Shown piece by piece: positions 4,915-59,661 of a DNA stretch of 64,000 nucleotides. Every line of letters begins with the position of its first letter. Position 1 is the first letter of the stretch. The DNA is from Adineta vaga (Eukaryota; Animalia; Rotifera). The notes below the pieces were generated by a model, which worked only from the letters and a program-made list of their open reading frames with translations, was not told the DNA's origin and ran no database searches. The DNA is taken from positions 1,178,001 to 1,242,000 of the forward strand of contig CP075492.1 in the NCBI GenBank assembly GCA_021613535.1, written 5' to 3'. Both the position numbers and the translations under genes were made by a program.

Positions 4915-7278
4915 AAAAATAGTTCTTTCGATATCTATCAACTATTCGAATAGATGTCATCAATATTGTTTCTGTTAGTTTAATGAAAATATTAGTTATT
5001 TGTATATTTTTTCTTCTATTTATCCTATCCTCATTTTGATGTTGTTATTGCCAATAATTAGTTTGTTGTTACTTACAAGAAATAAATATATTGCTATCTA
5101 TTCCTATTCTCGTAGGAGGATCTAGTCCTAGTATTTCTTCGAGTTTTAATTCTCGTTTTTATAGTTTACTGGCAGAGTTACCCGCTGCAAATTAAGAAAT
5201 ATCTACATAAAAAAACATCACAAGTTGAAAAACGACAGGAGATGTAGATACGAATATCCTGAAAAATGAAGTACTATCAAATTCATTTTCTGAATTTAGT
5301 TCTATAGAACTGTTCATTAAAATTTGTTTTTTTAATCGGGGTTTATCCTCAGCATTGCACCTTCATCCATACACATATACTTCACTTTTACTCTAATCCT
5401 GATCCACAATCTTATATTGATACATCTTTGACGGATATGAGATAGACGAAAATAAATTCGATGAAATATTTCAAAGTAGACTATCAATCGAAATCATCTC
5501 TTGTGATTTCATTCACTTATTTAACATTGTTTAATTCTGATCAAGAAAATCCATAACAAATTCTGCAACTTCCCAGAACAGACGCATATGTTTCAGCGCC
5601 ATGGAGAATGTGAATCTGGGAACTTTTGTATAAGTTCGAAGAATCTTTTACATTCATTTCATGATCGACAACTTTGTTAATACACATTTACTTCTGTGAT
5701 CTGTGTCGTCATCTACTTAACAAAGTGACAAAATGTGATTGTTTTATGAGGTATGGATATGTGGAGATGGATCATTTTTCGTATCTCAACAAGCATTTCC
5801 AGCGTCCCCAATCTGCAGGATATGTGACATCACTCGTGTACTTCATTCCTAAATTTGTCTTTGAGCACTTTTAATCTTTTGCAAAAAAATCTGATAAAAT
5901 GTGGAAAAATTAAGAAAAGATAATTTTTATTTATTCCTTTTCCATAAAATAATATTCAATTCTACATTAAATAAGCAGAAATAATTTTTCCATCTGTTCT
6001 TTAAATTTACAAAAAAAATATATTCTCACTTAATTGATTGAACAAAAAATTATGAAAAAATTAAAGAAATTATTTTCAATAAAACTTGATCAGCGACGAG
6101 TAATTAACATTTAGGAACTCAAATCTGGTTTTATCTCTATAGATTATTTTGTTATACAAAAAAATTTTAATTTGACAAAAAGATTTTGATATTGAAGAAC
6201 TTTACGACATGAAAAGTCTACACATTTTATCTTCTCCTATTCAATATTCTCAATTGAATCGTCTAGATGAACATAATAGACAGACATAGGACCATTGTAT
6301 ATCCTTCGAAATTTGCAGTTTTAGGAATAAAGATTTTGTTCATAGTTCAGAATAATTATTTCTATGTGAAAGAGAATATACCAAATCTCATATTGTCCTA
6401 GACAAATGACGGATTGAGACAATAAGTATTCTTAGAACTTTACAATTTAAAAAAATAGTACATATTTGTTCATCAATGAATTTCACTGACTAATTGATGA
6501 TATTAGTACACACATTGACATTATTTTATATGAAATCAACAATAGATATCATAATCCGACAATGCACGTATTCTGAATTTAGAAGCTGATGTATACATCA
6601 ACATGATCGATAAGAAATGTTTAGTGATGGCGATATTTTGATCCATTAAATAAAAGTATTCATAACCTTAGGAATATTTCAGTGATTTCGGGGAAAAAAG
6701 AAATATGTCAATACTCTGAAGTTATAAGTGAGAACAGATTTGAAAGTTTAAATTATATATGATTAGAAATGTTCTTAAAGAGTTAAATAAATATTCTAGA
6801 CGAATTTATGAGAATTATATCGAAAATATCTTCTACATAATTGTTTCAAAATAATGATATTAGAAGCAAAATAAAATAAAATATTTCTATCTTTGTCTCA
6901 TTGAATTCTTCTACGTATGATTTTTTGTTGTGTTTCCTTTTAACTCCTTTCCTGTGACGCACTATTCTATTTAACATGTCTGAATAAATAATTTGTAAAA
7001 ACATCAAAAATCAAAAAATAGAAACTCCTCAAATATATTATCAATTATTTTCTTATCAAATAGACGTCATAGATTTTGTATATAAATTTTCTTTGTAATT
7101 AATGATTAACATAAATATCGACAAAGTGATTGTCTTTCACAAAACGCCGACTTTGCTTTGAAAAATTGTGAATTTCCTCGAATAAAATATTTCATTAGTT
7201 TCCATATGTTGGTTAATTTATGATAAAAATGAATAAGAATCGTTTATTTCATCGATTTTATGAACATTTATATAATTA

Positions 7279-7400
7279 AAATTTATTTATGCCTGAAGAA
7301 AATCTTTATGATGATCATACTGATACTGTGCATGAAAAATGTTCGACGATTTTGAAACAACAAAAATATTCAACTTGGTTGTATATCTTTTTACTCATGG
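7279..7400 (+). pseudogene. Orphan exon fragment: N-terminus/TM1 start of the 2-TM Cys-rich module
   Basis: Translates NLFMPEEN...LKQQKYSTWLYIFLLM followed by donor GTGAG at 7401; matches the 'NLF...Q+xSTRLY' start of the other modules; in-frame TAA just upstream; no continuation seen. Confidence 0.55.
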
Positions 7401-8379: not shown

Positions 8380-8912
8380 CCCTTAGAAGCCGAAATGTCT
8401 CTTCCAAGGGACATTGCATTAATCGCTATAGAAAAATGAAGGTCTTAGAATGTGTAACTTTTTAAAGCACAATTGGTTACTCGGATACTTCTATTTTCTG
8501 ATAGATACAATATGGATTTTGAGTTATATCATTAGAAATAAACGTAAGTTATAATTTAAAACAGTTCAGCTTTATTGAAATTTTCCTACTAAGGTATTCT
8601 CACGTTATGAAAAAGTACCATTTGATGGGCATTTCTAGACATAGTAACCAGGGTTATTATGAATTTTTCACTCAATAGATAATTTGAGATATCTTAAAAT
8701 TCCATCAGAATGAACTTACAGTGATTCTGAATCATATTAGATACTCACGAGAATATGAAGGCCATAGTTCACCCAGACCATCTGAGTGGAAGAATGTTTT
8801 AGTCACACCTAGCAGTTCCAACCACGGTATGTACATATTGAGGATGCAAAATCTCTATCTTTGTAATTAAATTTTCCTCTACTTCACAAAAATCCCCTTC
8901 GATTTTTAAGGA
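8380..8912. mobile_element. Degenerate piggyBac-like non-autonomous element
   Basis: TTAA at 8376-8379 and 8913-8916; ends CCCTTAGAAGCCGA vs reverse complement TCCTTAAAAATCGA (10/14 identical). Confidence 0.45.
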
Positions 8913-9121
8913 TTAATGCGAACGTGACGTTACTTAGTGATGTTTATCTGATTGTACTCATCTAAAACTTCTGACTGGCTTTAGGTTAAAAAGCAATAGG
9001 AATAGTTAAGATGCCTGTAGAGAAGTATAGAGATTGATTTTTGATCAACAATTTTTACTTATCCATGTGAAACGATAAGTTAACTAACCACTTTTTTTCA
9101 GATAAAAATTAACGCCAAATT

Positions 9122-10211
9122 ATGTTAATCATCGTTTATTGTCGTTCTTTTCTAAACTTTCTCAAAAAGAATCTACTTGACTTCAATTTGTTCAATGACG
9201 GTAGTAAAGATGAAGTTATCAAACAAAATCAACGTTGATCAACTCGTTTATATTTATTTCTTTTTATCTTATCAATATCTATTATATTACTTTATAATAT
9301 GATTACAGTTCATGTTCAAACAATATTTATCAAATCTCCTTCTTTTATGAAATATTCTTCTCTAGCAGAACAGACATCATTGCAATGTTCTTGTACAAAA
9401 ATAGCAATAAAATATAAAGATTTTATTAAAGTTGAATCTTCTTATCATGAATTATGTCAAAGTGATCTTATTTCTGATGAATATATCAAACAACTTTATA
9501 TTCTTTATGAGAAAACTATGCCTGAATCTGTATCAACTGATTTCCATCGAATAGCTGTTTATCAATTTGCAGCTCTTCGTAAATTATGTCAATTAACGAA
9601 AGAAACAGTTGAAAATCATCTTCAAACATTTTTACAAACAGATTTTATTCTATCAGAATTAATTTCTGAACAATCTCTTCATATTCAAATAACTTCTTTA
9701 TGAAGAGATTTCATTGATTTTACACCAAAAACATTCTTAATAACATTAACATTTATTCAAAATATCACTGCACAAAGTTCATTAATGACAGGTGCTTCAG
9801 TAACAAGTGTTTTACCTGTACAACAAAATGAAAAAGCTATATACGATATTATGCCTTATAATGGAACAAATTACATGTTTACCGATGGTTCATTTTGTAC
9901 ATGTTCAAGTTCAACAAGTACAACTTGTATAGGTTTATCAACATTTGAAAATAATACTGTTCCCGGTTTTCAGACAGGTTGTTATATGTTAAGTGCACTT
10001 TTCAAATCAACACTTTAAGTATTTTATAATCAAACATTTATTAATCTTCTTACTAATTCATCAAATCAATATCGAAAATTAAATTCTTCATTTTCAAATG
10101 CCACAATTGAAGAATTACTCAATCAAATGTTTGTTATTAAATGGACAAATGAAACATTTTTTCAAAAATACTTTTATCAATGTGCACTTGATTATTGTCA
10201 ATATACAATTA
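9122..10211 (+). pseudogene. Pseudogene of the 2-TM Cys-rich module, truncated by a Helitron
   Basis: One frame with in-frame stops at 9236, 9701 and 10016; motifs FNLF, STRLY, LQCSC, YHELCQS, PGFQTGC, STL, FYQCALDYCQY; TM2 is missing where the Helitron begins. Confidence 0.8.
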
Positions 10212-11268
10212 TCTATCTATCTATATATATAAAGAAGAAAGTTTGTCTGTCTGTCTGTCTGTCTGTTCGCTATGCATTCAGTCGCTGTAATAGCCACGAT
10301 CACCAAACTTTCTACGATGCTTCCTAAAGTCCCAGGAAAGGTCGACATGGGGTTAGAATGGTCATCGGGGGGTGAGGGTGAGGAGCGTGGGTAGCGGCGG
10401 CGCCAGAATTTCCACTCAGGGTGGGCTAAGCCTATTCAAAAAATATTCAAGGTGGGCTCAACTATAGAAGTTGTGCCTTTTTGTAATATAAAAATCAGTT
10501 TTTTTCAAAAGTTTTTTAAATCAGGGTGGGCTCAAATGATTCCAGGATGGGCTCAGCCCACCCTAGCCCACCCTTGGCGCCGCCACTAAGCGTGGGTGAA
10601 ATTTCACCCAGGCAGTTCAGTGATAGCTGACATTCCCAAACTTTCCACAATGCTTCCCTCGATCCAGAGGAAGGTCGACATGGAGTTAGAATGGCCATCA
10701 AGGGATGGGGAGGCGGCGTGTGTGAAATTTCGCTCTCAAGATGGCATATGGGAATCAGGGTGGGTGTGGGTGTCTGCATCCAGGATAGACAACTACAAAG
10801 CGTGGTTTGGGTTCTCAAAAAAACTGAATCTGGAGTGAAATGACTACTCTACCTGTATAGAGTAGAAGTGAAGTTTATAAAGTAGAGAATGACTTGCAGC
10901 GGGACAGTGGGTGTGGATTTAAAAGGACCAGAGCTGTATGTCGTATGCATAGCGAGACAAAATCAGTAGGAAAGAACTAATGAAGAGCTGCGAAAAGTTC
11001 TCAAAACAGGGCCTGGTGCATGACGCGAAAAGGGATATAGGAGGAGCCTCAGTGCGGAGGAGAAAGACGCGTGCAAGACAGGTAACGCGCGCTGAGTGAC
11101 GACCTAAAAGATCACACTAGCTAAGGCAGGATGGGAAAGGGGGGTGTGAGGATTTTTTGATACACGACGGGTAAATACCGACGGAAAGATTCGGTGGGTG
11201 ATGAGAACAGCACTGTTGTAGATGGAAAACGTAAATTGTGTCCTCTTTGCAGCGGGTATCTCCGCTAG
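10212..11268 (+). mobile_element. Non-autonomous Helitron
   Basis: Inserted A|TC...CTAG|T; 5' TCTATCTATCTATATATATAAAG followed by a (GTCT)n microsatellite; 3' GC-rich stem AGCGGgtatctCCGCT overlapping the terminal CTAG; more GC-rich than flanks; internal ~135-bp duplication. The 5' boundary is uncertain by one or two TCTA units. Confidence 0.75.
10392..10588. mobile_element. hAT-type MITE (197 bp) nested in the Helitron
   Basis: TIRs TAGCGGCGGCGCCA / TGGCGCCGCCACTA (13/14); perfect 8-bp TSD AGCGTGGG at 10384-10391 and 10589-10596. Confidence 0.9.
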
Positions 11269-11284
11269 TTTATTATAAATGTGT

Positions 11285-11527
11285 TCTGTAAAAAAAAGGT
11301 GTCATACTGAACCCTTTTTCGGTACTATTTTCAGAACCCTTTTAGGTTCTAGTAAAAAAATCTAGAACTTAAAATGGTTTTAGACTTTTCTTCTAGAACA
11401 AAAAAAAAGGGTTCTGAAAATGGTACCCAAATTTAGAACCATAAAAAGTTCTAGACGTTCGTAAAAAGTTCTAGCTCTAGGGTAAAACCTTTTATGGTAC
11501 ACTATTATCCGTTTTTTTTTTAGAGTG
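11285..11527. mobile_element. Palindromic MITE remnant (CACT-type terminus)
   Basis: Right end TTTTTTTTTAGAGTG (CACTCTAAAAAAA on minus strand); internal inverted pair TTTTCAGAACCCTTT / AAAGGGTTCTGAAAA and repeated GTTCTAG/CTAGAAC; left end degenerate. Confidence 0.55.
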
Positions 11528-11920
11528 TATTTGCAAGTGAGATTCTGTTCAAGAAATGAATAAATAAGCATCTATTAGCGATGTCTTCACTCGAGAGACG
11601 AAACTCAATCTGTTTATTCGAAACGATATGAAAGAGAATGTGTATAGAAGATAAGAGAAACAGATGAAGAAGAGTATGTGAAAGCATGTGTATGTACATG
11701 TCTGTAACAGCATCCATCCAGGAAGATTTTCTCAAATCTTTCTTTTTAATCCGTGATAGTTTTAACAATAAATGGAATTTCAAAGTTCTTAGATGAATTA
11801 CTTCGACTAACATTTGATAAATATGTCTGTACCATAACAGTTATTGATGTTGCCAATTTAATTCGTATTCTTGAAATATTTGTTGAAAATGGTTGTTTTA
11901 AATCAACAATCTGATGTGCG

Positions 11921-12150
11921 CAATGATGCTTTTTAGTTATTCTGCTAAAAAATCATTACCGTTTAGAGAAAGACCACGTATACCAGATGCTGTGCCTGAT
12001 TGAGAGAAAACTCACTTTCTTTCATCGAGTTGAGTAGCCATTTGATATTCAGAAGAATGCTTTTTAGCTATTCTGCTCAAAAATCATTACCGTATAGAGA
12101 AAGATCACGTATAGCAGCTGTTCTCCATTCTTCAAAGAAAACTCACTTTG
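11921..12150. repeat. Imperfect tandem duplication, unit ~130 bp
   Basis: ATGCTTTTTAG(T/C)TATTCTGCT(A/C)AAAAATCATTACCGT(T/A)TAGAGAAAGA(C/T)CACGTATA occurs at ~11925 and ~12057. Confidence 0.8.
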
Positions 12151-13041
12151 TTTTGTCGTACTAAATGATCATATGAAATGAAACAAGGTAGGTGAAAGAC
12201 ATTTATGGGTGACCGCTTAAGAAGAGATGCATAGCTACGTTAAATGGAGCATTGTTGAGAAAACATTTTTCAGTCTGCTGCTCAAGCTTTCATTAGGAGT
12301 AAAAACATATTTGAGTGCGAAGTTTCCATTTCTAGGATGAACTTAGCATAGCTAGTTCGAAAATGTGCTGCTGATATTTATCGTCGCGAGTGAAAGATTG
12401 TCCTGTTGTCAATTCAATTTGTTATCAGAAATGATGTAACAAGTGAGTATTGATATTGAGACCTTACAGATCATAAAGGTGTACCTACTTTGAAAAAGCC
12501 TTTTGCACAGTCACTGTCAGATGAAAATATGAAACATAATGGTGTTATTCGTATCTTGGAAGGAGGATTAATGAATATATGTTTCGGTATACAAGTTCCT
12601 GTCGATTATTGTTGAATTTCGGTGATAAACGACATCTATCGAAGTTTATTAGGATCTGATGAGTTCAGGTTTTATTTTAAGTAATAGGAACATGAAAGTA
12701 AAAGTTCGACAAAAAGACTATCATCTACATGATTCTAGTTTCTCAATGATGTTCATTCGGTACTCTAGTGACACTCCGTTCTCTAGATCATCGCATCACT
12801 TAAAAGGAACTTTGCACGCCTTCTCGAGAAACAGAAATAACTAGATAGCATCTCGACTTCGCCTAAAATGCAAGAAGAGATACGAAGTGTATCACATGCT
12901 CAAACGTTTAGTTTTGTCGAAAAAATCAAGAGTGAAATTTGTCATTTTTAAAGATACTTTATATACGAACGGAATGCCTTGATTAAGTTTGGAAAACAGA
13001 TGATAATCATTTTGCTAATTTTTGTGCTTCAGATATAAAAG

Positions 13042-16000
13042 ATGTGCGCCGCGAGGGAAGAAAGGAAGTGCTTTGATCGTCTTCGTCGTTTTGGAAAGTT
13101 TTTTATCGAGTGTAATTTATTCAAAACGGACTCTACGGATAGAGAGACGGTTTACATTCAACAATGGTCTACACGGATCTATATTGCTTTACTTCTTTTA
13201 TCCATGTCCATTTTGTTAACCTATAACGGATTACATAATACCATGGAATTGGTTGAACTGCAAAATCCTTCTGTAGAATTCTACTTACAATTGCAGAAGA
13301 CCCACAATGATGTGAGTTGTCCGTGCACTCAAATCTCTGTTGCATATGGGTCATTCGTGGAATTAAGTCCCATTTATCATGCGATCTGTTTTAGTGATTT
13401 TATCTCACAAACATGGATCGATCTACTCGTCGATAATAGGACGGCCATGCGTTACCCAATAGACTTTCGTTCTTCGGCCAGTCTGCAATTTCAGGTATTA
13501 CGAGAATTATGTAGTCGATCGCGCACGGTTTTAAATAATAATATTCAATCATTTTATAATACAAAGCTCATCTCCGGCTATTTGACGAGGGAAAATTTAT
13601 TACTTATTGATACAGAGGCGGTCATAGATACGCTTAAAAAACGTATATTTGAAGATTTTCAGCAGCCAATTCTATTTATTCGCCCATTAATGATAGACAA
13701 TCTAATAGCGTCTGGAATTCAAACAGCAGGTCTTTTAGGTTATTACCCGCAGAACAATATACCTGACGCCATCTTTGTGATCACTAACTATCACAGAGGC
13801 GCATCTTGTGAATACAGCTGCACTTGTGATAACGCTGACACTTGTGCTGTGCCGGCAGTCTTCTACAACGACACCTTATTCAGTATTCAACAACAATTTT
13901 GCTATATTGATGGAGTAACAAGAACGCCATTTGCAATGAAAAACTGGTTTGTAGGTTGTTGGGCTTTAGGTTCACTTCTACTCTCATCAGTAGAAAGCAG
14001 TTTTTTGAACAATCAAACTGCCCTTGAATTGATTGCTCTGCATTCCAACTGGTCGTCCAGTTTGATTTTGCCAACTGTTTTAAACCTGAACGTATCGCAA
14101 CAGGCAAATAAAAGCAATAATACTTTCAATGATCTTCTTCAGAATTTATTCGTTGAGGAATTACTGCCGGTGATCAATTATTCCCTTTATTTTACAGAAT
14201 GTCGACCACGATCATGCTTTTATTTGATGACGCGAAGTTCAAATATTCTCTATATATTTACTTCGCTTCTTGCTCTCTACGGAGGCCTATCGATCGTTCT
14301 TCAATTTCTCGTTCCATATATAGTCACTTGATCGAACGCTTGAAACATCAGAACGTGCCAACAGTCGATACTGGTGAGTTTACAGCAATCCTTTTTGAGT
14401 ATCATTAACGTTCGTTTCTAATATAGCATTATACTCTAATTTTTCTGATACTTATAAAATGAATCATTTCTTACTTGATTCTGTCTCTCTTTTCTAAAGC
14501 CGCCTTTAAGATCGATAACTAGTGCAAATCTAAGATCGTTTTCATCTAATAAGACGGTCAAACATAATTTATCGTATCACACCTGTCACTTACCGAGATA
14601 AATTTAGCTATGAGGAATTTCATAATTTGCAAATAATATCTGTTGCTAGTGTTACGAAAGTTCATTTTCTCTTTTTTAACTCTAAATTATTTATTCTGAG
14701 TAGAAGTGATGGAAAAAAGAACTTCGTGGCGACAACAAATACGTGTCATGACTGGTTCCTTATGGGGTTTACTTACCAAATTGAATATGTTCAAATCCTC
14801 ACATCGACAAGAACCATCCGACATCAAAGAACAACGTTGGACGACGCGAATCTTCATTATATGTCTCGTTATTGGATTTATCATTCTTACATTTTATACG
14901 ATGCTGAGTGTTCAAACAAAACTGATTGAAGTAAAGAAGCCATCACTTGAAACCGTACTCTACTTGAAATCACAGCGCGAATTTAATTCTTCTCTTCAAT
15001 GCCCATGCACACAGATTAATACTCCTTATGGAAAATTTCTACAACTTCAACCGTCTTATCATCAAGTGTGTTCAAGTCTATTCATAACGACGCCATTCTT
15101 GTATTATTTGCGTGCTTTACTCCAAATTCCTCCTCTATATATGCGCAATAAACCTGATTTTCGTTTCACTTTTCAATTACTTTTCTTGTTGCAAAATTTA
15201 TGCAAGTTAACGAACAACACGATTTACAGTTCACTCGATACATTCCGTCAAACTCAGTTAGTAACAGCTGATCTCCTCTCCGTCGATATCTTTAATTATC
15301 AGATGAATACTACCATTCAACAATTTAAGTCAAGATTGGGGGATACTTTTGTAAGTTTTTTTCAACTTATCCGTAATATCAGCTACGTCAATCAAATTCT
15401 TGTTAATTCAAATAATCCTCATTACAATTTCATTGGTTCATTTCCCAATATTATTACTTTTAGTATTAAAAGTTATAGCGGTGTAAGTGGTAATTCGTCG
15501 TATACATGTTCGTGTGCAATTGATATCGATTGTAAAACAAATGTAGCCTTATTCGGTGCAGATTCTAATCGGACCCCTAAATATCTAGTACCTGGTTTCT
15601 ACAAGGCCTGCTCCCCTCTTGAGTCACTACTCCATTCAACCCTCGAATGTTTCTATGATAATAGCAAATGTTTCACCGACATAATCAATTTTTACAATGC
15701 AGCATGGTTTCAGTATTCTACACGACTCAATTCATCTTTATCTAGTCGATTTATAACAAATAGTTCGATAGGCATTCTACTGTTCGAACTCTTTATTGAA
15801 AATTGGAGTCAACTATTGAATTACTCATCCTATTTTAGTCAATGTCAACCAGCATCATGTTCCTACAAGATTCTAGGGCGTAATAGTTTAGTCGAAACTA
15901 TTACGATAATCATTGGTCTTGTCGGCGGACTTTCGGTATCTCTGCGTATCACTGTTCCCTTCGTCATGATGACTTGCTTTGCGATTATTCATCGACGAAC

Positions 16001-17354
16001 ACGCCAAGGTGCGGCTACTCCGCCGAGTAAGTAAATCTGTTTCTATTCATCGAAATAGTCAAAGAAAATAAGAATCTTTTTTAGTTTCTATCTTGGCGCG
16101 ACTTGTAGCAGTCCTCAGGCAAGTTCTACATTGGTTGAAAAAACTAAATGTTTTCGATAATTCGACTCTAAACACACCTAATCATGTCAAACAACAACAA
16201 CAACAAGCAACGTACGTCTATTTAATTCTTCTTTCTGTTGCATTAATTATTCTTGTGATTTACAATTCGCTAACGTATTATACAACAACATTCACAGTGA
16301 TCAATCCATCTCTGGAACAATATAAGCAGTTGGAACAACAATATAGTATGGATAGTATCGATTGTCCATGTTCTCAGTTAGCGATCTCATATTCATCGTT
16401 TATTGAGTTCGAATGCAATTTTCATCTGGTGTGCGAGAGTCATTTTATTTCTCAAGAATATTTACAAGAACTCTTTTTACTGTACAATTCACTAGACGTA
16501 GAAAATGCAGCAGCAAACGCATTTACACTTCACGGCACAATCTTTTCACATTTTCAAGTGCTCCGGTCTCTGTGCAATCTCGCTAAGGATGCTATCAATG
16601 TTGCTCGACAAAACTACCTCATTTCATTCTTTATCTCTGCCTCGTTGATCAATTATAACCTGTTCGATAAACAAATGAATGCGTCTTTGATCAGTTTAAA
16701 TCAACATTATCCGATCATTATTTAAATAATCTTCAATTAATTCGCGGTATGATGCAAAGCAATGCATTTGTGTCACTCTACTCGACAAATTGGTATCCTG
16801 TCTTGAACAATTGGAGTAATTGGAATTATTTTTCAACAATTTATATGAAACCACAACATTATGGTAACTGCAATTGTTTGACATCGTCTGCTTGCAATCA
16901 ACCATCAGTACCTTTCATTCAAGGATATCTTGTTGGATGCACTCCACTCGAAGCAGTTCTTCATAGTTCGATTGAATGCATGTACGAACAAGCTTGTATC
17001 GATCGTTTAACTATGTACTTGAATCTGTCTTCCTCCACACCGACACCGTTGAATCAGAGTGAAACTCGCTTTTTATCAAATGATACTGTTGATTCAATTG
17101 TTCAGCAAATGTTTATAGAAACATGCTCATCAAATGTATCGTATAATCAATTCTTTCAACAATGTCGTCCTCTTTCATGTTCAGTTACGCTTATCAAACG
17201 AAACAGTTTAACTGTTGTTATCACCGCACTACTGAGTCTTTATGGAGGACTGACAACTTTTCTTAAACTTGTTGTTCCTGTTCTTATCTTTTCATTACAC
17301 AAGTTAGTCAAAAAATGGAAACAAAGAAGAGCAATTCAAATATACACGCCCTAA
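13042..17354 (+). CDS. Multi-pass membrane protein of three tandem 2-TM Cys-rich modules; exons 13042-14373, 14704-16026, 16085-17354; two apparent 1-nt frameshifts (~14325, ~16690)
   Basis: Each exon encodes NxF..STRIY-TM1-CPC..YHxxCxS..FQxLxxLC..CxC..GC..STLEC..QCxPxxCxY-TM2(GGL..VP). Both introns are GT-AG phase 1 and join in frame once the frameshifts are corrected; AATAAA-like signals follow 17354. Confidence 0.8.
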
Positions 17355-17857
17355 TTTAAAATGTGCTTACGTGTAAATAACAAAACAAAACGCTTATGCT
17401 TATGCTTATTGTCAATTATTTATCGATAAAATAATAAATAGACGCACTAAAACTTGTGAATGCTATCTAGTAATACATAGACATTGAGACGATTAAAAAC
17501 AAATGATCTTTTTTGTTCTATAACAAGTTTCAAATAATTAAACATATTGACAACATACAAACATGTACTAGTACAAAAAGTACTCTTGGAGTTTTTGAAT
17601 CCCATGCTTTCTTTATTTTCTGCAATCGTTCTACTAATGGTCATTCCAGTGACCAAGAGGAGGGGGGGGGGGGGTAAAGGGTTAATCGATAATCTAATCT
17701 TAGTCGACTAGACATGTCAAGATCTATTGTTTATTGAAAGTTTAAATATAAGCAAAGATTTCTATCACAGGGTGAGTCCAGCATGCCAAGATCCAGATTT
17801 CATCCCAGCTAAAAGAATCATCAGTTGGCTTTAACTCTGCTACAGTCGTTCGAATAA

Positions 17858-19030
17858 TTCCCTCGACTGTAAGGAGGGTCATATGAAAAAAAATAGTTTG
17901 TTTGTTTGTTTAAGTCAGGGTCACAGGTCAAAGGTCACACCCATAAAAAATCTTTTTACAAAGTTTGACCGAAGGTTTCCGGGGGTGGGGAATCCGAATC
18001 TATCATTAGTTTTCTAAAACTTTGAAGTGAGTCCTTCAGGTTAGCATTGGGTAAATATCATCCTCTCTCAGTTGGCTATTATTGCTAATATTTCTGGTAG
18101 CGTCATCATTCCCATCGAAAAAAGGATTTGAATGTCTGTTATAGCAATAAATAATTATACTATATAATGAAGAGATCTCAATGTCACATCAAATAGGAGC
18201 AATCCATGTACACTTTCAAAATAGTGTCTAGAATGTCTTTTATAAGTGACATCCTGCTGGGCATAGGTCTAGAAGAAATTAAACTTATTCTGTTTTATTT
18301 TTCTGTGGTTGTATATCTTCTACATTAATCAGAATATGAATTATTAGGGTAATATATGAGGGTGAGGATCATGGTGTGGGTATGAGGGTGACGGTGTAGG
18401 TATAAGAGTGAGGGTTTGATGTTGAGGGTGTGGATATAACGGTGAGGATGTAGGTATGAGGGTCAGGGTGTATATATGGGGTTCAGGGCTAAAGTGACTA
18501 AAAGGATTAAAGGCGCCAAAAGAGATTTAAAGGACTAAAGCTACTAAAGGGGACTGCACGGACTAAAGGCTTAATTAACATGGACAGAAAACTAAAACAG
18601 GATGAGTTTGATTTCTCGTGGACACCTCCTGCTGGAAGTTAAACGAAACTTCACCGTAAAGAAAATGATGGAAATAGAAGATGATGAGGATATTCATATG
18701 AAAATGAGGATGCGTGATGAAGAGAATTCTTTTGATGACAAAATGTTAATAATTGAAAATATCTGGTCAAGTTAGAGCTGTTATGATGTATTTGAAGTCC
18801 CATTAGACTGAATTCAGAACAGACGAATAGTGGAAGTGTTTATATATTGTATATATATATATATATATATGTGTATATTTTTTAAAATTGGACGATATCA
18901 GCATAGGATTTTGTATTGCTCATTCAGATAAAACTGCTGGATGAGTTCTTCCGATACCGACAGATGCGAAGAGTAACTCTGCCTTCCACAGTCGAGGGTT
19001 AAGTGAGTCGAAGCGACGAACGTTACTTGT
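17858..19030 (+). mobile_element. Helentron-associated (DINE-1/HINE-like) non-autonomous element
   Basis: Subterminal IR CCCTCGACTGT (17860-17870) / ACAGTCGAGGG (18988-18998); (GTTT)n near one end; short stem-loop GTCGaagCGAC (19007-19017) and terminal ACTTGT at the other end, the same layout as DINE-1; no TSD. Confidence 0.7.
18355..18490 (+). repeat. Degenerate telomere-like (TGAGGG/TGTGGG) hexamer tract inside the Helentron-like element
   Basis: tgagggtgaggat..ggtgtgggtatgagggtgacggtgtagg..gtgagggt..tgagggtgtgga.. with 6-bp periodicity. Confidence 0.7.
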
Positions 19031-19067
19031 ATATATAGATAAATATTTATTATTATTCTTTGATTAG

Positions 19068-22000
19068 CTTCGACTTGTGTTCGTATAAAAAAAATCTATT
19101 TCAATCAATCAAACAAATAATAAAAGAATTAAATATATTTAAAAGTATTCCTCCATCAACAAATGAAGATAAACTTCGTCGAGAATGTTATATAACCAGA
19201 ATCTATATAATGATATTAATTTCAAGTATAATGATTATTATTATTTCTACAATAACTACCGGACAAACAGCTTATTTTCGTATAAAATCACCATCTTTAA
19301 ATGATTTTATATCTCTTAATCGTCAAACATTTGAAACAAAGGAATTTTATTATCGAAGATTTCAAAAGAACAATATCATCATCATTTCAAATAACATTAA
19401 ATTTAATTAAAACAAACTTTGAAATTAATCAATTCATAACACCAATTAATTCACGATTTTCATATTCAATAAGAGGTGCAGTTGATCTTGCATTAGGTAT
19501 AGTTGAATACTCTCAACAAGACACATTTCATTGTTTATCATTACAAAATAGAAATGTTTCTCAATGTAAATGTCATGCAACATCTCCCGATGTATGTTAT
19601 CGACATAGAAGTATATTTGAAAATGATACTTCTAATCCTATTCCAGGAATGTTTCAAACATGGTTTCCTCTTCAATCACTTTTAATGTCAACATTGGAAT
19701 ATTTATATAATAAAACATGTCTTGATCAAATTCAACAATTGATAATTTCATCAAAGAATTTAACTTTATTAAAATCATTTACATCATCAAATATTGATAC
19801 ATTAGCAAATAATCTTTTTATTCAATCAAGGAATAATCAAAGTTTATTTGAATCTTATTTTAATCAATGTCATCCATTAACATGTCAATATACAGTTTAT
19901 ACTCGATTAAATTTTATTTATATTATTACAAAAATTCTTGGATTAATTGAAGGTATTAATATTATTCTTTGTCTCTTTTTACCATTTCTAGTTATCTTTT
20001 TTCTTAAACTTATCAATATTATTCGACAAATTAAACGTACCGGAATACGACAAGCAACTGTATTTCAAAGACGACGTAAGTAATTTAATAGAAAATGTTT
20101 ATAATAACTGATTTATCTTAGAATTAATCAATCATATTCATTCGATCTTCAAATCTACTAAACAATATTTAATTGAATTAAATCTTTTTCCAACTATTCC
20201 ATCATCACAAGACCCAATTATTCTTGAAAGAAATCGACATACAACTCGAATATATTTAATTTTATTAACTACAGGATTGATTATTTTAACTCTATATGGA
20301 TTATTAAGACAAGATACGAACATAATCATTATTAAATCTCCATCAATTTCAAAATATCATGAATTATATTCTCGATATCCTCTTACATTGAAATGTCCTT
20401 GTAGTAATACAGCAATTAAATACAAAACAATTCTTACTCAAATTCAACCTCGATATCATGAAATATGTTCAAGTATTTTTGTTTCATCTCAATGGCAAGA
20501 AAGCATAGACACAGGAGTGTATCAATTTCAATCGGATTTCTCCAATCATATTGATTATCGTAAGTTAATTCGTATTCAATTTCAAGTATTAGCACAATTA
20601 TGTACTTTATCTCAGACAACAATAAATGCATCATTAACAAGATTTGGACAAAATAATTTTATTACATCAGTTCTCATTTCATCTGCTGAATTTCATTTTC
20701 GAATAGAAACTATACTTGAACAATATAAAATATCAATATCTCAACAATTTATGGAAACAATAAAATTAATTCCACTAACAAATTATGGAAATCAACTTGC
20801 AACAGGCTTTTTATCGAATTGGATATTTACTGCCATACATTTTGTTCATGAGTATAATGTGTCTCTTTATAACGGGCAAACAATACTTGTATTTACTAGA
20901 CCACGAACATATGATGAAAATGCTTGTTCATGTAGAATACAAACAATTTGTTCAACACTATCCTATATTGTGGTTTCTATTTATGGTTCAAGATATAACA
21001 TAGCGGTACCAGGATTTCATATCGGTTGTCTTTTTTTTTGATTCTCTTCTTCAATCGACTTTAACTTGTCTCTATAGTCCATCATGTTTAAGTACTATAC
21101 AAGCAAATATTTATCAAATCAAACCCAATAAAGCAAACATTCTGACGTATTCTTCATTATCACCACCAAATACAACTATTGAAACATTACTTAATCAACT
21201 TTTTGTTTCTCAATGGCTTCAAAACACATCATTTGATCATTATTTCAATGAATGTGCACCTCAATCTTGTCAATATTCTTATTTAATACAATATAATATA
21301 ATTTATGTAATTACAATGTTAATCGCTGTTTTTGGTGGTTTAACTAAAGGATTACATTTCATTGTGTATTGTTTAGAATTAATATTCAGGAAGTTGATTA
21401 CAAATCGAAAGAAAACAAATTCAATAAAACCATGTCCAGATATTGAACAGTCAGTTGATTCTATCATATCAATTTCTCAGGTGATTATCTTTTTTGATTG
21501 AGTATTTTCTCTAAGTTTTGCAATTTCTTTTTAGGCTGATACGATTCCGATTCGTAATTCAATGAAATTTGTTCGACAAAGAAAATATATAAATCGAACA
21601 ATTCTAATCTGTTTGATTCTGTTCGCTATTGGTGCGTTAATAACAATTTTTGTCATGTTACTTAAAAATCAAAAGAAAGAAGAAGAAGAAATTATTCCAA
21701 CAAGTACACAAACTACTTTTATAACAAGCAACAGTACTGATACTATCACGGAAATATCAAGTATGTTTAAATAAAAAGACAAATCCGTTGATGATAATTG
21801 ATCCTTTTTTTTTAGATACTTGTTATATGACGTTAAAACATGAATTTAAGACTTATCCAATTGGAGGTATAAATCCCGTATCAATGATTACGGGTGATTT
21901 CAATCGAGATTCAATGATAGATTTAATTGTGGCTAATTCAGATTCAGATTCATTGAGCATAATGTTAGGAAATGGGGACGGAACATTTCAAATACCTTAT

Positions 22001-22858
22001 ATTTTTTCGATAGGAAATGGTTCTCGTCCACAACAAATCAAAACAGCTGATTTTAATAATGATACGTTACCCGATTTGAGTAAGTGCTTTTTCTTTTAAG
22101 AGAAAAAAAACAAAACAAAAAAGAAACTTTCTTCAAACTTATTTTCAGTTGTTACATTAGAAGGAACAAATGAAATAGTGATTTTCTTTGGTATTGCAAC
22201 AAGCAATCTATTTAATTTATCATCTTATATTTTTCCTTTCTATAATTACAGCAAAATACCGAATGCAATTGAAGTTGCTGATATGAATTTTGATGGATTT
22301 ATGGATTTAGTTATTAGTTCTCCGGAAAAAAATTCATCTTATCAGGATAAATTGAATATTTTCGTAAATAATGGTGATGGATATCAGTTTGATCTTGCAT
22401 TTGCATATATTATTAGGGATTACAATAATATTTTAGGGATAGCCATTAAAGGTATCAATGAGGGGAAAATTGGATTTCATGTCTGCAATGGTAATAGTTT
22501 TGTACAAGAGTTTATTTCTTACAAGGATAACGATCTGATAATCTATACACACAATACTCAACATTATCTTTATGGACATCCAACGATGATTATAAAAGGA
22601 AATTTTAACAATGATTCACTTGATGATATAGCTGTTTTAACATGTAATGGTACATTAACTGTATATCTCGCATTGAGTAATCAAGTATTTGATACAAATT
22701 ATTTATCATTCAAGATGAATACAAGTAATAATTATAGTCAATGTTTTCATTCATTACGAATAGTCGATTTGAATCAAGATGCTAAAGATGATATCGTTTT
22801 TATTGATACAGAAATGAATCAAATACGAGTTCTATTAGGTTCTCCCTGTGCTGAATAA
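19068..22858 (+). pseudogene. Two 2-TM Cys-rich modules + TM anchor + Ser/Thr stalk + FG-GAP propeller; 5'-truncated and damaged. Exons ~19068-20076, 20123-21480, 21535-21760, 21816-22079, 22149-22858
   Basis: Module motifs as in 13042-17354. The first module lacks the CPC..LC block (deletion and frameshift at ~19340); frameshift in a T-run at ~21035; then TILICLILFAIGALITIFVML TM, T/S-rich stalk, and GDFNRDSMIDL, ADFNNDTLPDL, ADMNFDGFMDL, VDLNQDAKDDI repeats. Splice sites join in frame. Confidence 0.75.
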
Positions 22859-24900
22859 TTATTGTTGTACTTTTCATTAAATGTTGTATCTCACATGTCC
22901 TATATAAATAAACTTCAATATATTTATGAATAATAATTTAGTCAAAGATACTATAGTCTTTGACATAAAATGAGACCAAGGCTGTGGGTGAGTGAAGGAA
23001 GAGTCATATATATGCATAGTTTTAAATTATAATAAAAAGTAACCAAAATAAAACTATTCCTATTCTTACAGAAAAACATTAAATGTGAAATATAGTCGCA
23101 TATAGATAAAAGAAAATCTATTCCTGTTCTATGGAAAAACTCTAACTCAAGTTTCGTGATTTAATTTGGAAAAGTGATATCAAATAGCTGAATGTCCATT
23201 TATGTTCGAATTCGAATTAGGCAGCTCATGGATAAAACATTATAAACTGCATAACATCTTTGATACCTTTAGCATCTTTTATATATTTTTGCACTTATTT
23301 AATATGTGAATAGTGGATCTTATTTTTCAATTTATCTTTTGCACTTTTAGACTGTCGATATCGATGTTAGTTTTTTAGAGATAGAATGAAAGGAAGAAAA
23401 ATTGTTTCCTTTCTTTATTGTCCGTAAGAAAAACGATGAATGATTCAAAGAAATCATTTCAATCTTTCATTACAATGAATTCAACGTCAGATATTATTTG
23501 CTTTCATTTTTGCATCTTTAAAAAAAATGTTATCGATTATCATCATTAGCTTCGGCTATTCAATCGATTTCGTAAGAATTCAAGTATAAACAAAACAAAA
23601 GAAAATATTTTTCATGATATTCGAGATGTTCAACATAATGACTCTAAAGAACATTGCGGTCCTGGCGAAGAATTATGTTCATGAATATATCGATCAATGA
23701 AAGGTTATCTATTTCTCCGTCCTGCTACCTACAATATAGATTATGCGACGAAATAGGTGTATTCATCATCGCCTCATTACTCATTTAGATCTCGTTTATT
23801 AAATTAGTTATACTTCTGGTAATAGACATCCAATGAAAAACAACCTGGGCGTGGATGTCGTATATTTATTCATCAATCCGATGCACACCCACACCCATCC
23901 GCAAACTTTTTGCTCAATGTAGTATAAGAACATAAAGAGGCGCTTTTGATTGACTCAAACTAATTGTCAATCTCGGCACAGATGCCAGTAGATCAATGTT
24001 TGATTTCAGGGTATCAACGAACAACACAGAGGAATTACTTAAGATAATTTAAAGATTTTTATTTTTCAACGGGAATTTATAATGCTTGTAGTAATGTTGA
24101 AACCATTCATATTGTGATTGACAAATCTGTGCACTACGAAGAAAGTTCCAAATGTACAACTTTTAATGGTAATCTTAGCTGACGATCACGATCTTCTCCG
24201 AACATTAGTTTTCCTTTACAATCTAGAAGTAATCATCACCTATGTTTTCTTTTCTTAACTTCGGTATAAAATAATTGTTGTATGACGAGTTTTGATGAAA
24301 CAAATGCTTCCGTCAATAACATTACTCTTTTCTTTATTTCTTGTACTCAAAAATCGCATTCTTTACATATAAAAACAAACGAAACAAAAAAGAACGACAA
24401 GGACAAACAGATGAGAGAACGATATAAATGAAAGAATGAGAAGAAACAACAAAAATCATTAGATGTTGATATATGTTTTTTTGATTACTCTAAATAGATG
24501 TCTTCAAGTGACACATATTATCAATATTGATGTAATACATAGAAGGAAAAAAATAACTCACTCATTTTTCATATTCACATGATTTACACGTTAAAAAAGA
24601 ACATTTAAGCAATTGGTATACAGGGTGTCGTGTATATGTCTGTGAGGGTGATAATCTGCATGTGATTATTTCTCTCTCACCCTCACCCAACAATACGTTC
24701 TGCAGAAGCAGAAAGAATGTTATTCGATAGCATTCTTTCATATACTTGACGAAGAAACGAAAGAAAAACAAACACAATATGATCGTTAAAAGACTGGTTT
24801 GCATATATGAAACATAAAAATCTATTTATTTATCTTAATTTAAGAAGAAAACAAGACTAATTTTGACGTCTCATGATTTCAAATCAATTAAATTATTAAT

Positions 24901-27660
24901 ATGAATGATGATACAACATCTTCAATTGATTGTCAATATTTGAGACGATATATAGCTCAAGATTATTTACTTATTTGGCTTAATAATGATATTGATGAAG
25001 CAAATGAAGAATATCAAAATATATTAAAACATTTACGAACTATAGTCGATACGATCGATATATTTACCAATCTAAATGAATGTGTTGATTTTTTAACTGA
25101 ATTTAACGATATAAAAACATTTTTGATAGTAAATGATACAATAGGTGAACAAATTATTCCTCTTATTCATGATCTACCTCAACTTTATCAAATCTATATA
25201 TTTTCTCATAAAATCTGTTTGTCTGATGAATGGACAAAAAAATGGTCAAAGATAAAAAGTACTTTTTCTGAAATTACACGTCTATGTACTAAATTGGAAC
25301 AAATGATCAGACAAATCAATCAAGATTCTATTGTTATCAGTGTTATTTCACACAATGAAATAAATGAAAATAAAAATCTAAATGAATTAGAACCATCATT
25401 TATGTATTCACAGATTTTCAAAGATATTCTCTTGAAAATGAATTATGATAATAATTCAATTGATGAATTTATTAAATTTTGTCGAAATAATAATTCTGGA
25501 TCAACAATAAATATTGATAAATTTGAAAAAGAATATTATGCTCGATCATCTATTTGGTGGTATACATGGCCAGCTTTTATCTATTCAATGGTCAATTACG
25601 GTCTTCGTACTTTAGAAAGTGATATTATTATTAAAATGGGTTTCTTTATCTATGATTTACATAAACAAATTCAACAATTATATAATGAACAACGTGATAA
25701 TTATAATGGAAAATCATTTAAAGTTTATCGAGGACAAGGATTATCTAAGGAACATTTTGAAAAAATTATTAAAGCAAAAAATGGTTTAATATCTTTTAAT
25801 AATTTCTTATCAACTAGTACAGATAAAGAAGTTTCTTTATTATATGCATTAAGTGCTTTGACAGCTCCTGATAAAATTGGAATACTTTTTATTATATCTA
25901 TTGATCCTTTGATTTTATCAACACCATTTGCATCTATTCAAAAACATAGTTTTCTTGAATCTGAAAAAGAAATTCTCTTTTCTATGCATACGATATTTCG
26001 TATTGGAGATTTGAAACAAATTGATAATTATGATCAACTTTATGAAATAGAACTTCAATTAACTTCTGATAATGATAAAGAACTTTGTATATTAACTGAT
26101 TGGTTATCAAAAGATGTTCAAGATGAATTTGGATGGAAACGATTAGGTAATTTATTAATAAAAATTGGTCAATTTGATAAAGCTGAAGAATTTTATAATA
26201 CATTACTTAAACAGACAACTAATGTTGATGATATGATACATTATTATGGTCAACTTGCATTTATCAAATTTAATCAAGGGAATGAAAAAATGTCCATGTG
26301 GTATCATTTGAAAATTACAGAACTTAACAAGAAAATAAATTCTTCTGATTCTAACAATGATCAAATTAATGTAGTAAACAAATATTTTAGTGAAGATAAT
26401 AAAACAATTATATCTTATAAGAATGATTTAATATTTGATTTAGAAGAGATTAGTAAATGTGATATTCAACATATAGAATATTCTCAAGATAAAGAAATAT
26501 CTTCAGATACATTATTATTCTATGAGAAATCACTTGAAGATTTCGAAAATAAATTATGTTTAAATAATTCTTATTCAATAATTTCATGTAAAAATCATAT
26601 CGATTCAATTGAGGACGATTTAAAAGAATCATATCCATTACTTTGGTATCAAAGAAAAATACTTGAAATTCGACAAAAATATCTTCAACCAAATCATCCT
26701 GATATAGCTCAATCGTATAGTAATGTTGCTTCATTATATGAGAATAGAAAAGATCATTATCAAGCACGTTCATTTTATCAAAAATCAATTGATATTTATG
26801 AAAAAATTCTTCCCTCAAATCATCCGACTTTATCTTGTTATTATAATAATATTGGTATGACATATGAATTCACAGATGAATATTCACAAGCACTTTGCTT
26901 TTTTAAAAAATCACTTGAAATTGCCGAAAAGACTCTTCCTCCATATCATCTCAATTTAAGTATTATTTACTTTAACATTGCTGGATTATATGAAAAATTA
27001 GATGATTATTCTAATACAATTTTCTATTATAAAAATTATAAAACAATAATAGAAAAAAATCTTCGTACCAACGATAATGATTATACGTTTTCTTGTACAA
27101 AAGTTGGATCAATATATCGCATGATGAAACAATATTCCGAAGCACTTCTATATTATAAAAAAGCACTTACTAGTCAAGAACAAATACTTTCGTTAGATAA
27201 TCCTCAATTAATTGATTATTATACAGAGATTGCTTCATTGTATGGTGAACTCGAAGAAGATACAAATGCACTTTTATTTTATCACAAAGCTCTGAACATT
27301 GTTGAAAAATATCTTTCTTCAGAGTATGAGAAATTATTTACTTATTATGATACAATCGCTAGATTATATGAAAAAAATGAAAATTATTCTCAAGCAGTTT
27401 TATTCTATGAAAAATCACTTGAAATTTGTGGAAAAATGTATACTTCAAATAATATGAATTCGGCGGTTTGTTATAATAATATTGGTATTGTATATATCAA
27501 AATGAATCAGTATTCAAAAGCATTGTTCAATTTCGAACTTGCTTTGCATATGAAGCAAATATGTAGCCCTGGAAATGATTCACATTGGAAAGATATTCAA
27601 GATGTTATCGATTATCTGAGAGAGCTTGAAAATAACGATGTGATTGAGCCTGTCGAGTAG
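24901..27660 (+). CDS. Receiver-like domain + ADP-ribosyltransferase (R-S-E clade) + TPR-repeat protein, intronless, 919 aa
   Basis: VYRGQG, NNFLSTS and ESEKEILF catalytic motifs; N-terminal alpha/beta segment (LLIWLN..FLIV..IYIF); C-terminal kinesin-light-chain-like ~42-aa TPRs (HPDIAQSYSNVA, YYNNIG..Y). Confidence 0.9.
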   Translation: MNDDTTSSIDCQYLRRYIAQDYLLIWLNNDIDEANEEYQNILKHLRTIVDTIDIFTNLNECVDFLTEFNDIKTFLIVNDTIGEQIIPLIHDLPQLYQIYIFSHKICLSDEWTKKWSKIKSTFSEITRLCTKLEQMIRQINQDSIVISVISHNEINENKNLNELEPSFMYSQIFKDILLKMNYDNNSIDEFIKFCRNNNSGSTINIDKFEKEYYARSSIWWYTWPAFIYSMVNYGLRTLESDIIIKMGFFIYDLHKQIQQLYNEQRDNYNGKSFKVYRGQGLSKEHFEKIIKAKNGLISFNNFLSTSTDKEVSLLYALSALTAPDKIGILFIISIDPLILSTPFASIQKHSFLESEKEILFSMHTIFRIGDLKQIDNYDQLYEIELQLTSDNDKELCILTDWLSKDVQDEFGWKRLGNLLIKIGQFDKAEEFYNTLLKQTTNVDDMIHYYGQLAFIKFNQGNEKMSMWYHLKITELNKKINSSDSNNDQINVVNKYFSEDNKTIISYKNDLIFDLEEISKCDIQHIEYSQDKEISSDTLLFYEKSLEDFENKLCLNNSYSIISCKNHIDSIEDDLKESYPLLWYQRKILEIRQKYLQPNHPDIAQSYSNVASLYENRKDHYQARSFYQKSIDIYEKILPSNHPTLSCYYNNIGMTYEFTDEYSQALCFFKKSLEIAEKTLPPYHLNLSIIYFNIAGLYEKLDDYSNTIFYYKNYKTIIEKNLRTNDNDYTFSCTKVGSIYRMMKQYSEALLYYKKALTSQEQILSLDNPQLIDYYTEIASLYGELEEDTNALLFYHKALNIVEKYLSSEYEKLFTYYDTIARLYEKNENYSQAVLFYEKSLEICGKMYTSNNMNSAVCYNNIGIVYIKMNQYSKALFNFELALHMKQICSPGNDSHWKDIQDVIDYLRELENNDVIEPVE

Positions 27661-39500: not shown

Positions 39501-39853
39501 TCATGTATCGCCGATAGATTAAACCATCAATTTCAAAGATTCGTAATCAATTAATCACCGTTGATTTTCTCATTTTGAGTCATATCATATCATTCACACT
39601 TAATAAAATATAAATAAAGTAAAATCATCTACGATTTTGATGAAAGTTTTCTTTTTTGAATATCATATTTGTTACAACACACTTGCCTCTTCCTATTCGG
39701 AAATGCACTCAAAAGGAAATCCGTCCGTTTGTGTTTTTATCTAATGCATTAAAATAGGAAAAAAAACAAAATGCATGCACATATGTTTGTGTCAATTTAG
39801 TAAAGAAAAGCTCTGTTTTATGTAAGAATATTTTTTCATTTTTTTCTAAAATT

Positions 39854-58492: not shown

Positions 58493-59661
58493 TTAACTAC
58501 TTTCGGGTAAATCAAAAATTTCTCCATGTTTAATAACAACAAATGCATTTGGATTCAATCTGTTGAATTCTACAGCTGTTTTAAGCTTTTCTCTTGGTTC
58601 TAAATAGAACTCGTTAGCTAAAGCCCATGTTCCCCAATGTATACCAATCGATTTCTTTGATCGAGTATCAATATGTATTTGTACAGCTTCATCAGGTGAT
58701 ACATGCTGATCTTCCATCATCCAACGAGGTTCATATGCACCAATTGGTATAGCACTTAAATCAAATGGACCATATTTTTTTCCAATTTGTCTAAATATTG
58801 GAATATTATCAGTATAACCTGTATCACCAGCAAAATAAAATCGATAATTTTCATTCCATATGGCATAACCACCCCAAAGAGATCGATTTAAATCATTCAA
58901 ACCACGACGTGACCTAAAAGATAGAACAACAAAATCCCATATCGAAATGAAAAGTTTTATTTTACCAATGTTGAGCTGGACAAAATGCTATTTGAATATG
59001 TTCTTTAGTCTAAAAGAAAAATAAGAACAAAAATTTTCCAGCAAAAAAAGTTTGTTAATTTTCCTACTGGATGTTTCCATTCTTGCCACCAATCAAGTTC
59101 GATAACATTTTTTATAAAACAATCACGAAACCATTGTCTTCCACCGAGACCACAAAACCATGTTAATTTATCTCCATAATGTTCATTTAAACTTCTAACA
59201 CTTGGAAGATCAAGATGATCAAAATGATTATGTGATATAAATATTGCTTCAAGTTCTTTAGGTAAATCTTCAACTGTTAATGCAGGTGGACGATAACGTT
59301 TTTGTCCGATTTGTGGTGTTACACCACATCGCTCACTAAAAACAGGATCAGTAAGAAACACGAAATTGTCTATTTGAACAAGACATGATGCATGGCCAAT
59401 CCAGAGAAATCGTAAACCAGGTGATTTTTTTAATATTTCTTCTCGTTTATGTTCTATTATTGGTAATGTTTCATTTAATTCTTCAGGATTTGTTGGTAAA
59501 TTTGTATGATTTTTTGAAAATAACCAACGAAAAGCTTTGAGTTTTTCTGGAGCGAAAAATTTAGGATTAAATGAGTTAATATAACGATCATCTTCCATCA
59601 CAGATGATTTGATTGGCTCGTCAATATCAGAATTAGTTGTGATCGATGTTGATTCTGTCAT
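58493..59661 (-). CDS. NAPEPLD: N-acyl-phosphatidylethanolamine phospholipase D-like metallo-beta-lactamase; exons 59661-59068, 59009-58966, 58913-58493
   Basis: WIGHAS, LTDPVFSER, ISHNHFDHLD (HxHxDH), ELDWW, PAQHWSRRG, LWGGY, YFAGDTGY, IPIGAYEPRW, IHWGT. Confidence 0.9.

Follow-up and report, generated by a model that had tools for sequence, protein, structure and literature searches.

A bdelloid rotifer gene for three two-transmembrane modules in one chain: a candidate single-chain pseudo-trimeric receptor

A gene for an unusual membrane protein lies on the forward strand of a 64,000-nucleotide stretch of the Adineta vaga genome (assembly GCA_021613535.1, contig CP075492.1, positions 1,178,001 to 1,242,000), here called the window, to which coordinates refer unless another contig is named. 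Its plus-strand open reading frames (ORFs), at 13039-14331, 14700-16034, and 16072-16725 together with 16671-17354, make up a gene which, as read from its sequence, encodes a single chain of about 1,300 residues. Its three homologous modules, A, B and C, have two transmembrane (TM) helices each. Exon 1 (13042..14373) holds module A with its cytosolic NLF motif, Cys-rich ectodomain and linker. Intron 1 (14374..14703), a GT-AG intron in phase 1 of 330 nucleotides, is inferred from splice signals and from the orthologous protein P0099. Module B, for which structure models were made, is encoded by exon 2 (14704..16026); intron 2 (16027..16084), again GT-AG and in phase 1 but of 58 nucleotides, is placed on its splice signals, and exon 3 (16085..17354) holds module C and ends in a stop codon at 17352-17354. 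The initial annotation, which described three homologous Cys-rich modules with two TM segments each, one per exon and joined by phase-1 introns, proved correct in its coordinates and anatomy when ORFs, hydropathy and splice sites were considered.

The modules share 29, 29 and 31% pairwise identity over trimmed alignment columns. Each has two hydrophobic peaks (one near residues 45-65, the other near the end), 14-15 Cys and 7-10 N-glycosylation sequons, and hydropathy, Cys counts and an AlphaFold2 model of module B place two TM helices on either side of a large Cys-rich ectodomain, with both ends of the module in the cytosol. TM1 and TM2 lie at about 13177-13233 and 14245-14301 in module A, and at about 16207-16263 and 17208-17297 in module C; in module B, TM1 (about 14850-14906) is followed by the ectodomain (about 14907-15887) and TM2 (about 15888-15989). 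The motifs first described before TM1 are present in degenerate form, namely NLF..STRIY in A, NMF..TTRIF in B and NVF..ATYVY in C. Likewise, the Gly pair of TM2 is there, but sits about 12 residues inside the helix and not at its start.

In the window the reading frame is broken twice, at 14328 in exon 1 and at 16690 in exon 3. Short-read contigs from four runs and four studies were aligned over 8500-23500. At the first break, contigs of runs X1, X2 and X5 carry 4 extra bases that restore the frame, and the contig of the fourth run, X3, over 14133-14832 likewise shows 4 gap letters; at the second, contigs of all four runs carry 1 extra base, again restoring the frame. Scattered single-base differences also separate the window from these contigs. 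P0415, another A. vaga entry with 62% identity to module A, passes through the first break in the same frame. The window letters at both breaks are probably assembly errors, the alternative being a rare allele, and because neither break occurs in the short-read contigs the gene is probably intact. The public gene call at the locus, P0406, covers just a 362-residue piece of module A. Four RNA runs yielded no sequence over the gene or across its exon junctions, a result that carries no weight on whether it is expressed. Over 16878-17197, a 280-base contig found in all four DNA runs differs from module C at 17 positions and by a 40-base deletion (17048-17087); it reads as a decayed paralogous copy of module C elsewhere in the genome.

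The closest comparison is offered by P0099 of Adineta ricciae (1,290 residues), a co-linear orthologue whose modules are 66, 63 and 67% identical to A, B and C respectively, off-position pairs reaching 27-31%. P0107, a more distant member found on metagenome contigs L001 and L002, has three full modules in one uninterrupted ORF of 1,273 codons, and the three-module fusion is thus independent of splice prediction. It is very improbable, in our view, that the locus holds three tandem genes or a pseudogene and that the three-module chain is an annotation merge. The arrangement of one exon per module, the two frame breaks in the window, the short P0406 call and the existence of one- and two-module records speak for such a reading; against it, the breaks are missing from the short-read contigs, the ORF of P0107 is free of introns, merges would not stop at three, and the A-B-C order is conserved across species.

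An exhaustive profile search of 1.84 billion representatives gathered 4,162 proteins (clusters at 50% identity) at E<=0.001, from a library that carries no organism names; the best 150 were examined. In protein searches all named relatives were bdelloid, from Adineta or Rotaria, with at least 24 annotated family entries in A. vaga, and the ESM Atlas neighbours scoring 0.92-0.97 were unnamed rotifer clusters. A ciliate cluster, with PF27811 in 43-45% of its members, had an ESM Atlas score of 0.78, under the lead threshold. Pfam gave no match to the window modules (E<=1), to 49 members (E<=0.1) or to the TM pieces alone (E<=10), and none was found among PDB sequences, PHROGs, phage genomes or IMG/VR contigs; NCBIfam was negative for the modules, with one sub-threshold match on a TM. 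We found no description of the family in a literature search that left subscription journals and supplements outside its reach, so that the family may well be named in some gene-family table.

The number of modules per chain is remarkably constant among long relatives. Three modules were counted in 108, two in 11 and four fragments in 1 of the best 120 of 142 matches among proteins of 850-2,425 residues; the corresponding counts for the best 150 of the 4,162 profile matches are 121, 28 and 1, the last being the same protein. Combined, the lists comprise 244 distinct proteins, of which 210 have three modules, 33 have two and 1 has four fragments. Summed coverage in this set of top-scoring long relatives never exceeds 2.97 module lengths, and the four-fragment protein sums to 2.49. 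As the profile-search listing reaches 658 bits, a four-module protein with at least 165 bits per module would have appeared. The family sequences thus argue firmly for a ceiling of three modules. Lists ranked by score favour many modules and tell little about the frequency of one- and two-module genes. Classified by best match, 35 two-module records fell into 14 B+C, 13 A+B, 4 A+C and 4 other combinations; most are compatible with partial gene calls, 27 of 35 being the A+B or B+C of known triples. It had been expected that module counts would peak at one and at three: the mode at three is borne out among the top-scoring long relatives, but the mode at one is not, single-module records resembling single exons or partial gene models.

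Phylogenies suggest a more turbulent history behind this constant number. Within subfamilies, but not across them, a tree built from 213 modules of 71 genes groups the modules by position. The window modules A, B and C each group with the matching module of P0091, P0095, P0098 and P0099, both in this tree and in one of 60 rows, whereas P0101 and P0132 have their six modules together in a single group, with support in the Shimodaira-Hasegawa-like approximate likelihood ratio test (SH-aLRT) of 98 in the 60-row tree and 81 in a further tree. An approximately unbiased (AU) test on 30 modules from 10 genes, which were picked after the first tree had been seen and include many long branches, rejects a single clade for position C (p 0.0017) and for position A (p 0.0005). 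These results are suggestive only of modules having been duplicated or replaced more than once while their count stayed at three. An Asn at profile position 216, present in 99% of the position C sequences tallied (near-identical cluster members included), speaks against full interchangeability of the modules.

The AlphaFold2 model of module B is a confident one, with a predicted local distance difference test (pLDDT) value of 86.6 and a predicted template modelling (pTM) score of 0.70, and that of its ectodomain alone reaches 89.2 and 0.84. In the model TM1 continues into a 9-residue strand and a matching strand leads into TM2, forming a two-strand stalk; between the stalk strands are helices of 31 and 44 residues and two hairpins. 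Helix accounts for 147 (45%) and strand for 80 of the 327 ectodomain residues, the strands of three or more residues being 10 and scattered. Across the family, 12 Cys positions per module are conserved at 85-99%. Foldseek had no match at E<=0.001, either in the PDB or with viral models. VIA-align of the ectodomain found none at Z>=5 among 48,161 chains, the best being an unrelated helical bundle (Z 4.0, root-mean-square deviation (rmsd) 2.9, 90 residues), and with the whole module it returned only generic helical hairpins (best Z 8.0, rmsd 7.2, 99 residues). ASIC, ENaC, PAC and Erv41/46 are not among the Foldseek or VIA-align results, nor is P2X among those for the ectodomain, an absence that does not prove different folds. 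As modelled, the module fold is without a match among solved structures in the libraries searched.

The ectodomains of three such modules are predicted to assemble. The P0099 ectodomains (residues 68-409, 511-845 and 930-1247) were folded as separate chains, without TM helices and without use of an alignment. The A+B+C complex scored 0.75 (runs of 0.78, 0.74 and 0.75), compared with 0.54 for the best control, which retains modules B and C together, and 0.00 for both controls with an unrelated partner. Trimer runs share at least 87% of their contacts, with partner pLDDT of at least 82. The score mark was reached by 51 of 78 solved against 2 of 108 mismatched pairs (39 of 65 against 2 of 126 in eukaryotes), a calibration made on pairs that is only roughly valid for three chains. 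No similar complex was found among solved structures, and it is therefore unlikely that the predictor merely reproduced a known trimer. Module C contacts both of its partners in the predicted complex: 43 positions of A and 40 of B touch it, in numbering of the family profile, with only 7 shared between the two faces, and its own interface includes 41 of the 43 A-face and 34 of the 40 B-face positions (background 25%). Equivalent positions are in contact with one another: 209 with 209 (in both pairs), 205 with 205 and 219 with 219. These contacts describe a predicted closed ring with the long helices and the following short strand on its axis. The three 44-residue helices would converge on the axis, each packed against its neighbour's 31-residue helix, and the short strand of each module would form a cap; most of the predicted interface is made by these two kinds of helix. 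In module B the end of the 44-residue helix and the strand after it are encoded at 15345..15401 (plus strand; profile positions 201-219), and it is the equivalents of this segment from all three modules that converge on the predicted three-fold axis. The suggestion that one chain forms a pseudo-trimer has thus gained from the three-module ceiling, the intron-free ORF of P0107, the co-linear P0099 and the predicted cyclic trimer of ectodomains; we consider it well supported and very probable.

The same model bears on two rather different interpretations, neither of which we think probable. One is that these proteins are very remote, rebuilt members of the ENaC/ASIC/PAC/Erv41 group, which kept the frame of TM1, stalk and TM2 and swapped the beta-domain for helices. 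The topology, two-strand stalk, predicted trimer and a G-x-S/T in TM2 of half of the modules speak for it, but there is no sequence match to Pfam ASC, P2X, TMEM206 or ERGIC or to the PDB, the helix and strand content is as given above, and P2X7 aligns over only 76 residues. We rate this improbable, and kinship with ENaC/ASIC, P2X, PAC or Erv41/46 is not supported, given the lack of any such match and, in the predicted ectodomain, the 45% helix and the long axial helices in place of a 12-stranded beta-domain. The second, which seems to us slightly less probable still, is a protein that conducts lipids or small solutes, or one that remodels membranes in a fusion-like way, with trimeric helical hairpins as its frame. 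The three long hairpins of the model, set about an axis with hydrophobic residues, would suit it; the modules, however, are anchored at both ends, lack a third hydrophobic segment that could act as a fusion peptide, and do not match viral structures.

Further domains are often appended to the modules. Of the three-module proteins, 176 have a last module that is complete; the chain stops directly after it in 108 and continues in 68. Of these 68, 60 have a further, seventh hydrophobic segment, 41 have FG-GAP-like motifs and 2 have NHL repeats, the Pfam labels of the propellers in relatives being PF01839, PF13517 and PF01436. A seventh TM would set the FG-GAP or NHL propeller outside the cell beside the trimer. 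Such appended propellers point to sensing or recognition, with or without ion flow. Variations on the theme include P0282, with an FG-GAP propeller N-terminal to the three modules, and P0273, in which the seventh TM is followed by a tail of 900 residues made up of repeats about 115 residues long. On contig L002 (8774-13822) an FG-GAP propeller gene stands head-to-head with the intron-free P0107 gene at a distance of about 0.1 kb; the pair may be a two-gene counterpart of the proteins in which modules and propeller are fused. Measured from the Pro that follows TM2 up to the TM1 of the next module, the linkers have median lengths of 60 residues (n=109) and 66 residues (n=116).

The membrane part is conserved in ways that invite comparison with channels. 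TM2 has small or polar residues at profile positions 376, 380, 383 and 384 in 78, 98, 98 and 99% of modules, followed in the family profile by Lys/Arg at 390 and Pro at 394. The GG pair is found in 283 of 346 modules, and 177 of 357 have G-x-S/T at positions 384-386, a resemblance to the Gly-x-Ser belt of DEG/ENaC/ASIC that does not in itself establish homology or a break in the helix. Acidic residues in TM1 occur in only 4 of 357 modules. In the cytosolic part, NxF, located 23 profile positions before TM1, is present in 283 of 322 modules and TRxY in 218 of 338; NxF, TRxY and GG are conserved at all three module positions. According to one structural account, TM2 helices of PAC cross at a conserved Gly (PMC7904269), and another describes the GAS belt of ASIC, supported by a conserved pre-TM1 loop, together with a pre-TM1 His-Gly motif (PMC7308080). 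By analogy, not homology, a central pore lined by the Gly-rich TM2 helices is an even prospect. Three modules in a ring would place six TM helices beneath the ectodomain. A ligand or a mechanical stimulus acting on the outer domain would open a pore at the centre, its wall formed by the three TM2 helices, whose small-residue face (T-xxx-S/G-xx-GG) would line or cross the axis while the cytosolic NLF segment supports the inner pore. Propellers would serve as attached recognition domains. Fusion of three different subunits would fix one asymmetric receptor per gene, giving a repertoire of dozens. Whether the single-chain cyclic pseudo-trimer acts as a cell-surface ionotropic sensor is, in our estimate, evenly poised.

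A number of observations weigh against this picture, for which the channel evidence is indirect throughout. The trimer was predicted without its membrane part, and hence the model contains no pore; three-chain predictions fall outside the calibration of the complex score, and since close relatives of the true partner also pass, that score cannot show pairing within one chain. Axis positions 209, 218 and 219 of the ectodomain model are mostly hydrophobic, and with an axis filled in this way ions would need side openings. The pre-TM1 HG motif occurs in the first 45 residues of just 5 of 357 modules, small residues in TM2 show a helical periodicity that by itself falls short of significance (p 0.084), and TM faces rich in Gly are used for plain helix packing as well. 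The 33 two-module proteins among 244, and the 8 of 35 classified records that are neither A+B nor B+C, make real two-module chains possible. Finally, rapid expansion and decay suit recognition proteins equally. The principal alternative is indeed a pseudo-trimer that does not conduct ions and serves as a scaffold for recognition, adhesion or innate immunity, signalling via partners, in which the glycosylated trimer and the propellers bind microbes, matrix or chemical cues. The structural evidence for it (module ceiling and predicted cyclic trimer) is identical to that for a channel, and it gains from the swappable FG-GAP and NHL propellers, from the head-to-head FG-GAP gene beside the P0107 gene and from a birth-and-death pattern that includes a decayed paralogue in the same window. 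It also gains from the roles in defence, chemosensing and signalling that have been proposed for bdelloid expansions of FG-GAP, NHL and 7TM (seven-transmembrane) proteins (PMC3846280). Set against this, the cytosolic parts are just short linkers (medians as above) without a signalling domain, and the conservation of NxF, TRxY and GG at all positions goes beyond the needs of an anchor. We regard such a receptor as rather unlikely, though the most credible of the alternatives to an ionotropic sensor.

The surroundings of the gene bear traces of a second family member. On the plus strand at 9146..10213 lies a decayed module A with in-frame stops and without TM2, whose best matches are A modules of an FG-GAP-tailed subfamily (52-58%). 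A further plus-strand stretch at 19093..22858 contains a module B with an internal deletion, a module C, a seventh hydrophobic segment and FG-GAP repeats; the remnants at 19093-20023 and 20142-21420 have their best matches in the B and C modules, respectively, of the same subfamily. Together these remnants look like one decayed member, in which the block that holds the gene, about 8.8 kb long, stands between modules A and B. Two repeated elements border the block at about 10210-11269 and about 17870-19030, where many contigs run off (at 11269 and 19030). Close to their 5' end the elements carry a microsatellite, and their CTRR-like 3' end is preceded by a short hairpin, features that we take to recall non-autonomous Helitrons; the elements may have moved the gene. 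Short module remnants with best matches in other subfamilies occur at 7241-7399 (plus strand) and 62865-63053 (minus strand).

A long Cys-rich, EGF-like ORF resembling 7TM receptors is present at both loci, at 39758-44566 in the window and at 314-4984 on L002. A viral origin, raised by the recurrence of P0107 on contigs of about 158 kb, was rejected, as that locus has genes resembling G-protein-coupled receptors (GPCRs) and others of rotifer type, with a GC content of 28-35%. Translation of the window indicates further genes at 24892-27660, 33023-34060, 48265-49353, 54752-57081 and 58493-59676, which presumably represent TPR-repeat, Kelch and NHL repeat proteins, a transposase-like region and a phospholipase D-like protein of the metallo-beta-lactamase fold.

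Trimeric channels with two TMs per subunit are built on few folds (ENaC/ASIC/PAC and P2X), and their heteromers are put together from separate chains. The rotifer genes, of which a genome has dozens, would have stoichiometry written into them, in a membrane protein without a named relative or matching solved fold. Should this protein conduct ions, it would be a new channel class and a natural concatemer with each subunit separately mutable; should it not, it would still be a large, undescribed bdelloid cell-surface family and a candidate for sensing surroundings or pathogens. As the whole complex would come from one complementary DNA (cDNA), structure and function are directly testable. We tentatively propose, as a possibility just short of an even one, that bdelloids have a so far unnoticed class of ionotropic receptors: trimers with a new ectodomain fold, encoded whole in a single chain, rebuilt to exactly three modules on more than one occasion, equipped with swappable propellers as sensor domains and enlarged to a big chemosensory or immune repertoire.

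Among known systems, DEG/ENaC/ASIC and PAC/TMEM206 come closest in plan. With them the rotifer modules have in common two TMs, a large disulfide-rich glycosylated ectodomain, a trimer (here predicted), strands leading from TM1 and into TM2, a Gly-rich TM2 and, some 23 residues ahead of TM1, a cytosolic segment that is conserved. ENaC/ASIC and PAC share a core formed by a 12-stranded beta-domain (PMC7904269), whereas the rotifer model has two long helices per module on or around the axis. In addition, the rotifer protein joins its three subunits into one chain, to which a seventh TM and a propeller may be added, and where DEG/ENaC/ASIC have the Pfam ASC domain and the HG motif, the modules lack an ASC match and conserve NxF instead of HG. 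P2X receptors are also trimers of two-TM subunits with a Cys-rich ectodomain, their subunits being separate chains; the 76 residues over which P2X7 aligns to the module (Z 4.5, rmsd 4.2) are about the size of the TM hairpin plus stalk. Erv41/Erv46 (ERGIC2/3) resemble the rotifer modules in their two TMs, large lumenal domain and Gly pair in TM2, but that domain is a beta-sandwich, and the modules gave no Pfam or fold match to them. No Pfam match to the P2X, TMEM206, ERGIC_N or COPII-coated ERV profiles was obtained with the window modules, the 49 members or the TM pieces. Oligomeric channels have become single-chain by internal duplication in the four-repeat Nav/Cav and the two-repeat TPC/K2P, with repeats that diverged by position; the likeness to the rotifer protein is one of concept only, as fold and symmetry are unrelated. 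A natural three-repeat version of a two-TM trimeric channel was not found in our literature search. Because defining features of ENaC/ASIC, PAC, P2X and ERGIC were looked for in the rotifer modules and not found, the family is not placed in any of them, but it may work like them.

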